In this document: positions 41,200 to 64,000 of the stretch, one piece after another | How the letters are laid out: each line of letters begins with the position of its first letter | Position numbering within the stretch: the first letter of the stretch is position 1 | Assembly (NCBI GenBank): GCA_951406725.2 | Contig: OX597816.1 | Span: 110,050,001-110,114,000, forward strand | DNA from: Octopus vulgaris | Lineage: Eukaryota | DNA: 64,000 nucleotides | Direction of reading: 5' to 3' | Program-made: the position numbers and the translations under genes | Notes under the pieces: generated by a model | Databases searched by the model: none | The model's input: the letters and a program-made list of their open reading frames with translations, nothing else | Told to the model about the DNA's origin: nothing

Positions 41200-43010
41200 A
41201 TGTATGTATGTATATGGAAGAAAAGTCAAGGTAGAAAATACTAAAATAATTCTATGAAAAAGCTTTTGAGTACCGGTTTCAGCCTTTCAGACTTTTTCAA
41301 CTGTAAGTATAGAAAACAATAAAATTTTAAAAAAATTAAAAAGGTTTTTTTTAAAGAATATTTGCATAGTATTCAAATACAATGGGCATTTTCCTTGTTT
41401 CTGCCTGTCTCTGTCTCTCTTGCTTACTCTTGTGGATTCGAGGTCGTTGTGAATTCTTGGCAGAGAAGGAGAAGAAGAAGAAGAAGAAGGAAGGAAAGAA
41501 AAATAAGGGGGAGAAGAAGAAGAATGCTGGAGTGCGATGATAGTAGTAGGACGTTCGATGGTCAAGTTCCCTAAAAGTGACTTGTTGTGGCTGGTAGTAG
41601 TGATTGAATTCTTGAGACATCTCTGTTGAATGTATTGTTTATAAAATTTGCGTTGGTGTTATTCTCAACGACAATAGTGGTGAAGTTAGGAAGGATGTGG
41701 CGGAGAGGAAGAACACGAAGAAGAAGGAGAAAGATAAGGGAGAATAAGAAAGGAATGTATGTGGTATGATAGTAGTAGGATGTTAAATTGTCAAGTAACA
41801 AAAAGTGGCTCAGTATGGATTATAGCAGTGATTGGGACTGTTTTTAAATGAATTGTTGGGAATCTCTTGAGTGTATCATTTTTAATATTTGCTTGTGTGT
41901 TTGTGTTATTCTAAGGCCGTGGTAGTTATGTCGTTTGTTGTAGATGCGTTCAAAACGGGTCTGTATTTTGTAATAAGCAGAATCTCTTTACCAATTCGTT
42001 GGCTACAGGTTGTATCGTCCCTGAATTGGCAGGGGAAAATTCTGAAGCTTGGATCTTTGTTGTTGGCGCAAATGTCGATGTGTTGGCTGAATGCAATTTT
42101 TCTGTTTTGGGAGATTTTGATGTCTGAGTTCGTGGATGTTGAGTTGAAGAGCACGTTGAAAGCATATGTCAATTAGTGAAGATGGGTCGTTCCTGGTGAT
42201 GAGTGTAACAACCAAAGGGGCTGATAAAGGAAGTGCAGTTGTCTTAATGGACACGGTATTCTCTATAACTCTAGTACTATCCATATTAGAAGTCACAACA
42301 TATGAAAAAAGCCCCAAACTACAGTCAGCAGAAAATAATGAGAGACTGTTTTTTGTTTTGCCAATGTATTGCTCTTGACATCCAGAGCAGGTTCGTGCGT
42401 ATATCAGGTTCTTCGAAGCACATGTGAAGCTGCTTTTCACTGTGAAACGTTGTCCCTATTTGAAGGAGAACTCTGATCCCTCAATTAAATTGTCGCATAT
42501 CCCACAGTGGGATCTTCCGCATTGTTTTACTGATGGCTTCTGTGTTGTTGAGCGTATTCGGGCTTGTGTTAGGAGACTTTTCATAGATATGGGTTGTATC
42601 TTGCTTTTTATGATGGTGTGTGTTTGGAGGATTAAGTTCATTATGTGGTCCTTTTCTTAGCAGGACAATGTTTTGAAGGAGGCTTCATTGTATCGGAGAG
42701 GTTTGTGTGTGGAGATGTATGGTAAGGCTTTTGGCTGTAAATCCTTCTTTAATTTGGGATGTCTGAGTTCCTGGATGTTGAGTTGAAGGGCACGTTGTAT
42801 GCATATGTCAATTAGTGAAGGTCGGTCGTTCCTGGTGATGAGTGTAACAACCAAAGGGGCTGATAAAGGAAGTGCAGTTGTCTTAATGCACACGGTATTC
42901 TCTATAACGCTAGTACTATTCATATTAGAAGTCACAACATATGAAAAAAGCCCAAAACTACAGTCAGCAGAAAATAATGAGAGACCTAAAATCCATAATA
43001 AACCTATTCT
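41200..43010 (-). mobile_element. Penelope-like element remnant (GIY-YIG endonuclease, rearranged)
   Basis: Minus strand: CGRSHCGICDNL (Cys motif), FTCASKNLIYARTCSGCQEQYIGKTK (GIY-YIG), RIGKEILLITKYRPVLN. Plus-strand inverted pieces KGADKGSAVVLMD (Penelope pre-RT motif) occur twice. Terminal hammerhead; (TA)n on both flanks. Confidence 0.9.
41266..41305 (-). ncRNA. Minimal hammerhead variant (U3-A8 core) in the Penelope 3' terminal repeat; helix I degraded
   Basis: Reverse complement TACAG-TTGAAAA-AGTC TGAAA GGCT-GAAA-CCGG-TA^CTCAA. Palindromic ACCGGT, GUA triplet; only 2 bp of helix I remain. Confidence 0.6.
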
Positions 43011-62659: not shown

Positions 62660-63090
62660 AAAGATTGCAATATCTACAATTTCCTGCGACCATTTTTATT
62701 TCCCTCAAAATAAGTTTAAAAGCTTACATATCTACAGTTTTCGAACACACAAACGATCTCCTTTAAAAACTTTAATATCTACAACTTCTGTGAATATCTA
62801 TCCTTTCCTTACGCCCTGAGTATTCTAAAATGTAAACAATCTTTTTATTCTAAGACTATTACAGTTTTCTCTGCTCGGACATACAAACGATCATCTAGTA
62901 AATTTTAAAACACTAATATCTACAATTTTCTTCAAAAATTTTACTCTCATTTTCTTTACTTTTCTTCTCCTTAAGTATCCGAAAATGTAAACATCCATTT
63001 TGATAGCAAAAACACTACGGTCTTCTCTGAACGGACACAGAATAAAACATTTCTAGAAAATCTAAAAGTTTAATATCTACAAGTTTTTGT
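62660..63090. repeat. Degenerate tandem repeat, ~140-160-bp period
   Basis: Recurring aatatctacaa (62669, 62775, 62915, 63073), tattctaaaatgtaaaca / tatccgaaaatgtaaaca, and ttctctg..cggaca. Confidence 0.6.
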
Positions 63091-63226
63091 GACAAAAAAT
63101 GTCTCCCTGACTACCCGAATATACATACAAGCCGTTTATTGCAACAATACAATTAAATGCACGATAAAAAGCAAAAAAAATATTCAAAGAAAAAAATTCA
63201 AGAAGGTGAACATCAATATATGTATT

Positions 63227-63269
<43 letters not shown>

Positions 63270-63299
63270 ATGTGTGTGTGTATGTATATGTATGTATGC

Positions 63300-63347
<48 letters not shown>

Positions 63348-63349
63348 AT

Positions 63350-64000
63350 AAAATACAGTGTATATTAAAACATATTAAGAGGCTTCCATCATAGGAATCC
63401 GTTATGCTAGAAAGAACAGTTAAATTCCAAACCAATAATTAGGGATAAATTCTCGAAAGAAATGAAAAATTTTACTATCTAATTCCTGGACCATAGTTTC
63501 TGACCTATTTTAGTAAATAAAAATTATTATTCACTAGGCGAAGTCGTTATCAACAGGGACGCCATAAATTAAATATATAAACAAGGAGACCAATCCAGCA
63601 TGCATCTCATTGCTTGTACATTTCAAATTTTTTTTCAAATCCACTGCACAATCAGTCTCTTTTTGTCGGCAGCAGGAAAATGCCGGCAAAATCTTCGAAC
63701 GAATCTACCAGAAATCATTATACATAATTAATGATATCAGGGTAATAAAAATTTTAGAAATTTCTACTACCAGTGGCCTAGCGTAAAAGAAATTAGTCAA
63801 TAGTCTATATATTATTCATATAAAATATAGTGTATATTAAAACACATTAAGAGGCTTCCATCATAGGAATCCATTACGCTAGAAAGAACAGTTAAAGTCC
63901 AAACCACTAATTAGGGATAAATTCTCGAAGGGAATGAAAAATAAAAACATTTACCATCTAATTCCTGGTCCAGGAATTCATATAGTAAATGGTCCAGGAA
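63350..64000 (-). mobile_element. Hammerhead-bearing direct-repeat element (retrozyme-like), ~480-nt unit
   Basis: 63351-63489 is repeated at 63823-63967 with few differences. A hammerhead lies at the unit junction, an inverted cleavage-site fragment sits at the window end, and (TA)n is on the left flank. Confidence 0.75.
63485..63557 (-). ncRNA. Type I hammerhead ribozyme, U3-A8 core variant, extended helix II (predicted)
   Basis: Reverse complement CCTG-TTGATAA-C GACT tcgcc TAGTGAATAA taattt TTATTTACTA aaata GGTC A-GAAA-CTATGG-TC^CAGG; GUC triplet. Confidence 0.75.

Follow-up and report, generated by a model that had tools for sequence, protein, structure and literature searches.

The repeat at the right-hand end of the window (the whole stretch of 64,000 nucleotides of Octopus vulgaris DNA that was analysed, G000:C3:110050001-110114000 in a searched genome of 2.8 Gb) is very probably a non-autonomous hammerhead repeat of the type of Penelope-like elements (PLEs), that is, an animal non-LTR retrozyme, representing a new family of a known class. 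The copy in the window is a 5'-truncated repeat copy of 1.3 units, whose insertion into a (TA)n tract was likely the work, in trans, of a PLE reverse transcriptase-endonuclease. The first-pass annotation of this DNA had called the locus a retrozyme, and the label holds in the current sense of the term; the family carries a hammerhead motif and is non-coding, dispersed and retroposed. The class of element is known. The worth of the family lies in the countable footprint that it leaves of an unsolved insertion mechanism.

The layout of the window copy is given in Table 1, with positions in the unit counted from +1, the first nucleotide after the predicted ribozyme cut. The minus strand holds a unit of 479 nt (63967 to 63489), which is followed by ~143 nt of a second round and then by (TA)n/(TG)n. 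The monomer of ~480 nt with a partial second round that had been described from the letters alone is thus confirmed: the direct repeat (63341-63470 and 63813-63942) is 92% identical over 130 nt, ungapped, and the alignment of both rounds spans ~150 nt with a single 7-nt indel, nearer the cut. The hammerhead also keeps the coordinates first assigned to it, 63557-63485 on the minus strand, with the GUC cut predicted between 63489 and 63488. The 3' end of the second round would correspond to the first of two start sites of reverse transcription and the TA-rich patch inside the unit to the second, and the ~90 nt that separate them are the PLE-type "tail". Among its best matches, the window unit is 80–89% identical to non-self copies, and its fold gives z scores against shuffles of -6.3 (circular) and -4.3 (linear). 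The locus has one complete hammerhead, and of the motif upstream only 4–5 nt are present; thus, the locus itself could not release a monomer by two cuts.

Table 1. Features of the window copy and its surroundings (window coordinates).
Feature	Position	Strand	Basis
Full family A unit of ~479 nt, non-coding, bounded by +1 behind a predicted cut and by the GUC that follows	63489..63967	-	Sequence, family alignment
PLE-type hammerhead motif (type I), with cleavage predicted between 63489 and 63488	63485..63557	-	Motif anatomy, family covariation
Partial second round, +1 to ~+150, stopping at the short 3' end class of the family	63346..63488	-	Repeat alignment
Target microsatellite, (TA)n/(TG)n, flanking the element on its 3' side	63222..63345	.	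Sequence
TA-rich patch, unit ~+230-250, the long 3' end class of the family	63716..63740	-	Sequence, family arm ends
First short inverted (fold-back) piece, -4 to ~+8, spanning the cut site; palindrome at the 5' junction	63966..63978	+	Sequence
Second short inverted piece, -5 to ~+13, passing slightly beyond the window end	63989..64000	+	Sequence

A search of the genome with the unit gave at least 137 matches from the 40 candidates scored of 3405, and exact patterns occur genome-wide as 184 hammerhead 24-mers and 286 tail 22-mers, with 0 hits for the reversed-pattern controls. The matches and pattern counts establish a dispersed family, and local tandem duplication, an alternative that had been raised with the initial claim, is ruled out by the genome-wide dispersal. 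Head-to-tail copies define a unit of 475 nt in this family (family A) and of 492 and 459 nt in two sister families, B and C, which align with A over the entire unit at roughly 50–80% per 50-nt bin. The family A unit has a GC content of 33% and no ORF, the longest stop-free frame of a family trimer being 58 codons. All three units fold far better than dinucleotide shuffles, with z scores of -7.1 (A), -6.0 (B) and -4.7 (C) against -0.5 to +1.6 for four controls; in family A, circular and linear folds are alike. Tandem copies in family A comprise 1.3–2.5 units, so that copies exceeding one unit length, as had been claimed for the window locus, are found in the family too. Repeats inside one insertion differ by ~7%, which indicates that family A is aged. 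Our literature search found no paper on this family, which may already be listed in Repbase/Dfam or in supplements.

The window motif has a 4-bp stem I, a U3-A8 core, an extra base after A9, a long stem II and a short palindromic stem III. Rfam returned no hammerhead match for it, at the gathering threshold or at E<=10, and the minimum-energy fold of the isolated 88-nt motif is not hammerhead-shaped (z -1.4); the ribozyme call therefore draws on motif anatomy and covariation in the family. In an alignment of 45 family A copies, selected from 56 pattern matches with a pattern that requires the core and so builds in its invariance, 93.3% of cells are paired under the hammerhead structure and there are 25 two-sided changes. 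This number of changes is reached by 0/500 shuffles, a control that ignores relatedness among copies, which inflates the test, while slid structures are 20–44% paired. The 3-8 pair is U-G in 32 copies, C-G in nine and U-A in four, the window copy being among the last, and core position 7 may be U, A or C. The family A core is thus non-canonical, with U3-G8 in the majority and A-A at the base of stem II. In families B and C the core is canonical, and stems I–III differ from those of A yet keep their complementarity (in 23/30 and 24/30 loci, respectively). The motif is real as a structure, and self-cleavage is a prediction. We predict the family A ribozyme to be weak, a U3-G8 core being presumably a poor one. 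By computation, a self-duplex between two copies of the stem III palindrome has an energy of -6.6 kcal/mol for the window copy and -11.2 for the family, and the hammerhead fold lies above the monomer minimum by 2.0 (window) and 3.3 (family) kcal/mol.

Breakpoints at the GUC had been put forward as the hallmark of the family, a claim that its 5' ends do not support. To avoid selection on the 5' end, arms were anchored on a pattern at +101: the first 100 of the 286 pattern sites (contigs C1-C6), minus the window and two loci examined before, yielded 112 anchors and 93 distinct arms, 92 of which were scored for 5' ends (L139 was dropped). The hazard of a 5' stop stays roughly even along the arms, at 0.0066 per nt. 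Of the arms, 51 extend as far as +8; the cut is crossed by 43 of these, and one stops within -2..+3, where 1.7 would be expected. A small excess appears at +1..+8, with eight stops observed against 2.6 expected (P=0.004, uncorrected and post hoc), one of which (L133) is an alignment artefact, and over -24..+25 there is no excess, with 14 observed against 15.5 expected. The hammerhead cut does not define the 5' ends of insertions; a minority of cleaved templates is possible. Two apparent clusters of 5' ends were discarded. Ends at +1 among the best BLAST matches (L009, L019, L022, L030) are an artefact of a monomer query, as L009, L019 and L022 pass the cut by 4–17 nt and L030 goes further, and a pile-up at unit ~217-239 is uncorrelated with exactly one round and is better fitted by TA microhomology or internal deletions.

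In the window copy itself, the similarity of the two rounds does end at the predicted cut to within ~1 nt, as had been observed, with a breakpoint that is blurred by an overlap of 2–3 nt between the main arm and the first inverted piece, so that the arm ends between positions 0 and +2. The letters at 63989-64000 had been taken for the start of an inverted copy; extension to the right reveals no full inverted copy, only fold-back pieces of 12–24 nt. Three short pieces are inverted (starting at window positions 63966, 63989 and 64028), and one short piece is direct. The inverted pieces cover the unit from -4/-5 to ~+8, +13 and +19, and 4–5 nt of them come from upstream of the cut. Joined directly to these pieces is a coding-like fragment of ~260 nt (~64052-64310; L031:1052-1310), which is frameshifted, unrelated to the unit and ends in (TAA)n. 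It has no informative match in PDB or Atlas, a similar sequence occurs upstream of locus L033, and we take it to resemble the endonuclease region of RLE-type non-LTR retrotransposons. The boundary of the window copy at the cut may reflect a minority cleaved template, or chance aided by the palindromic sequence there.

The 3' ends behave quite differently from the 5' ends in that they are fixed. Of the 93 arms, 48 end at +140-170, 38 at +234-260 and seven elsewhere, so that 86/93 fall into two classes, and these fixed ends match PLE internal initiation. A (TA)4 is found at the 3' end of 63/93 arms, as compared with 7.4% of 42-nt background windows, and any microsatellite next to the 3' end in 76/93, as compared with 13%; the stretch scored includes the last 12 aligned bases of the arm. 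Head-to-head insertions make up 44/83. Where both outer ends of an inverted insertion belong to a class, one is short and the other long in 31 of 32 cases (P=8e-9). The pattern recurs in other family A loci (6/7, with 12 inverted among 36 loci), in family B (7/7, nine inverted of 30 loci) and in family C (6/6, 11 inverted of 27), the remaining inverted loci having one end outside the classes; the windows that define the classes were set after the data had been seen, for A, B and C alike. The paired arms overlap on the template in 29/31 cases, and the short-end arm extends further 5' in 23/31. A simple fold-back of one cDNA cannot produce such overlap together with the longer 5' reach of the short-end arm, and we infer two primings. 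A search of the literature found no report of this one-short-one-long rule of double priming.

A candidate source of the enzyme is present in the same genome. A GIY-YIG search, in which 150 of 6136 candidates were scored, identified repeated intact ORFs of 781 aa that combine reverse transcriptase and GIY-YIG domains (PF01541 above the cut-off, PF00078 just below it) with a CX4CXXC linker. The pLTR of these elements carries a U3-A8 hammerhead, and the elements end in (TA)n. The enzyme is probably a PLE of Neptune type, the clade being assigned by the linker motif, which is of the kind given for Neptune/Nematis in the part of PMC8557442 that we draw on. The autonomous family (L092-L100, L102; for example G000:C16:20835000-20841500) has a 479-aa frame followed by the 781-aa frame in many intact copies; it is young and likely recently active. 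Its 3' ends also fall into two classes, 40 nt apart (+83/+123), with one of each in both of two inverted cases (L097, L074). DNA homology between the unit and an autonomous PLE was found neither in 44 PLE loci taken from the 150 scored candidates nor beside 60 sister-family loci, so that the partnership of this enzyme type with the unit is itself put forward as probable. In two loci, L137 (4364-5790) and L209 (2065-3045), family arms are fused directly to internal PLE coding fragments, with neither a PLE 3' end nor a TA spacer between them, which suggests template switching. Such chimeras are few. A third candidate, L195 (5054-5043), is ambiguous and could be a nested insertion, and the three involve three different PLE families. 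Further apparent chimeras were rejected as nested insertions: L194, which looks like an ORF with a family tail, has the repeat inserted into the (TA)n tail of a PLE, and L165 and L181 are likewise nested.

Taking into account what has been described for PLEs, a course of insertion can be proposed. A PLE protein has been shown to cut both strands and to extend them, with synthesis beginning at two internal sites, one on either side of the tail, and with RNA that is mostly unprocessed as the template (PMC11167929), and inverted insertions have the tail at one end and palindromes at their junctions (PMC8557442, PMC3846280), in so far as the available portions of these papers go. The enzyme would nick the (TA)n target and prime inside the RNA, at the TA-rich patches that lie +150 and +245 from the ribozyme cut on its downstream side; often both strands of the target would be primed, each from its own site. 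Synthesis of cDNA would then move toward the 5' end of the RNA and terminate at a roughly even rate (on average ~150 nt past the +100 anchor), usually passing the hammerhead junction, and the 5' side would be joined by microhomology. The read-through at the junction implies a template that is mostly uncut there, either a tandem precursor or a re-ligated circle. In the window copy, synthesis may have stopped at about the cut site and the end been patched by short fold-back pieces. The ribozyme, for its part, would act as a dimer via its palindromic stem III.

A more specific proposal, whose chances of being right or wrong seem to us evenly balanced, is that PLE insertion is a two-ended reaction, in which the enzyme acts as an asymmetric dimer on structured ribozyme RNA. 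The dimer would prime from the two strands of a (TA)n break, either subunit being tied to a start site of its own, and would use two template copies supplied by an RNA dimer through stem III, a tandem or a circle. The one-short-one-long rule and the overlap of arms constrain how PLE enzymes insert, and if the two-ended reaction is true, it accounts for the inverted-plus-tail shape of Penelope-type elements, and the short units are minimal substrates for testing. One genome offers both the substrate, a non-coding unit of 475 nt, and intact PLE ORFs of 781 aa, which makes an in vitro test straightforward.

How the template arises is the main point on which explanations differ. Within the PLE explanation, tandem transcripts could cleave themselves to monomers of ~475 nt that are ligated to circles and copied for more than one round, a model that we hold to be quite possible but somewhat short of an even chance. 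It agrees with the well-folded head-to-tail units of all three families, with the absence of a wall at the junction and copies of up to ~2.5 units, and with at least five loci that have two full hammerheads in tandem (L012, L014, L019, L028, L193); moreover, circular RNAs have been demonstrated for the retrozymes of coral, mussel and axolotl (PMC7229834, in the text available). However, an uncut tandem precursor predicts identical read-through, so a copy length of more than one unit does not require a circular template. Unprocessed RNA is, according to the available text of PMC11167929, the dominant substrate in vitro, the circular fold is no better than the linear one, and the core of family A is non-canonical. 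Rare variants common to the repeats of one insertion, of which there is one among 20 tandem pairs, do not discriminate between a circle and a tandem template. That ribozyme-cleaved linear monomers are the main template, with reverse transcription running off their cleaved 5' end and template jumps accounting for the longer copies, is improbable: the boundary of the window copy at the cut and the repeated fold-back there, the 8/51 arms that stop at +1..+8 and a short piece starting at +1 in locus L149 would all suit it, but 43/51 arms cross the junction seamlessly, and the single stop within -2..+3 and the lack of an excess over -24..+25 are not what run-off would leave.

The remaining alternatives concern the nature of the element rather than its template. 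We give very little credence to the idea that the copies are pseudo-LTR fragments of an unsampled autonomous PLE and not a self-standing unit. The order of hammerhead, tail and (TA)n is the same as in the pLTR of the resident autonomous PLE, and the search for a partner covered part of the candidates (the 150 of 6136 in the GIY-YIG search), yet arms that extend beyond the cut enter the same non-coding unit, and tandems return to +1 after 459–492 nt without an ORF. Scarcely any weight attaches to SINE-like mobilisation by a LINE or an RLE-type non-LTR element, or to mere local tandem duplication. The fragment that we take to be RLE-like abuts the 5' junction of the window copy, with like sequence upstream of L033, and would speak for such an element; against it stand the hundreds of dispersed copies, which local duplication does not explain either, the internal 3' ends in two classes without poly(A), and the one-of-each rule of inverted insertions that the unit has in common with the PLE.

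The preferred reading, a non-autonomous PLE derivative, places the family among the animal non-LTR retrozymes, which Li, Clavereau and Pollet (2026, 10.64898/2026.07.22.740005) argue, in the portion of the preprint drawn on here, to be non-autonomous PLE derivatives. Like these elements (PMC7229834; 10.64898/2026.07.22.740005, as far as the accessible text of each describes them), the octopus unit is non-coding, low in GC and highly self-paired, is arranged head to tail with one type I hammerhead each, ranges from monomers to multimers and shares its genome with PLEs. It is longer than the circles of 170–400 nt reported in 2020 and lies inside the 51–972 bp range of the 2026 preprint. In contrast to what the same passages describe, its copies are mostly dispersed and truncated and do not form arrays, its hammerhead is the PLE variant and not the canonical loop-loop type, and it shares no pLTR homology with the resident PLE in the 44 PLE loci compared. 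Two consecutive complete hammerheads are taken by the preprint, in the part available, as the mark of an active element; the window locus has one, and the five tandem loci listed above have two. Neither octopus nor cephalopods are named in the available text of Cervera and de la Pena 2020 (PMC7229834), whose circles come from coral, mussel and axolotl.

The family also resembles EN+ PLEs of Neptune type and the non-autonomous elements derived from them (PMC8557442; PMC3846280; PMC11167929, on the basis of the portions available). In both, insertions are truncated at the 5' end, tandem rounds are incomplete, arms may be joined head to head and the tail marks one end; both have a pair of internal start sites, (TA)n as target, palindromes where inverted arms meet and a hammerhead upstream of the 3' end. 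Unlike the elements in these portions, the unit has no ORF, its tail is ~90 nt as compared with 30–40 nt, and both start sites are TA-rich, whereas the available text of Frangieh et al. describes initiation at a site that lacks homology to the target. The strict use of one short and one long site, counted here, appears in those papers in qualitative form only, within the same portions. As to the ribozyme, the available part of the account of PLE hammerhead variants by Cervera and de la Pena (2014, PMC4209133) shares with the unit a helix I of 4–5 bp, a long helix II, an unpaired base after A9, a palindromic stem III and the U3-A8 core variant; family A differs from that account in being mostly U3-G8, in a second extra A before G12 and in a long A/U hairpin that extends stem II. 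With plant LTR retrozymes (PMC4918200, and as described in the 2026 preprint), the family has in common that it is a non-autonomous hammerhead-bearing retroelement. In the plant elements, hammerheads of type III sit in true LTRs, accompanied by PBS/PPT, TSDs of 4 bp and a partner of the Gypsy group, whereas the octopus hammerhead is of type I and the ends of the unit are variable or internal and not LTR-like.

Several further repeats were seen in the course of the analysis. A tandem array derived from family A (G000:C24:12327801-12337238; L021, L024, L027), with a period of ~580 nt and 49-nt sub-repeats (+19..+68), is a satellite born from the element. More diverged relatives beyond A–C occur at L031:3948-4019, L147:1176-1418 and L142:2177-2307, and in the relative at L147 the A-A of family A at the foot of stem II is replaced by an A-U pair. 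Other repeat families carry hammerhead-like motifs with a palindromic stem III and U3-A8 or canonical cores (L031:5091, L031:5422, L163, L176, L080, L180, L194:774, L151, L168, L188). Within the window, a decayed PLE coding fragment with 42–56% identity to the 781-aa protein lies at 41945-42854 on the minus strand, and a degenerate tandem with a period of ~105-157 nt, whose fold is no better than that of shuffles, occupies 62660-63140, immediately to the left of the microsatellite.
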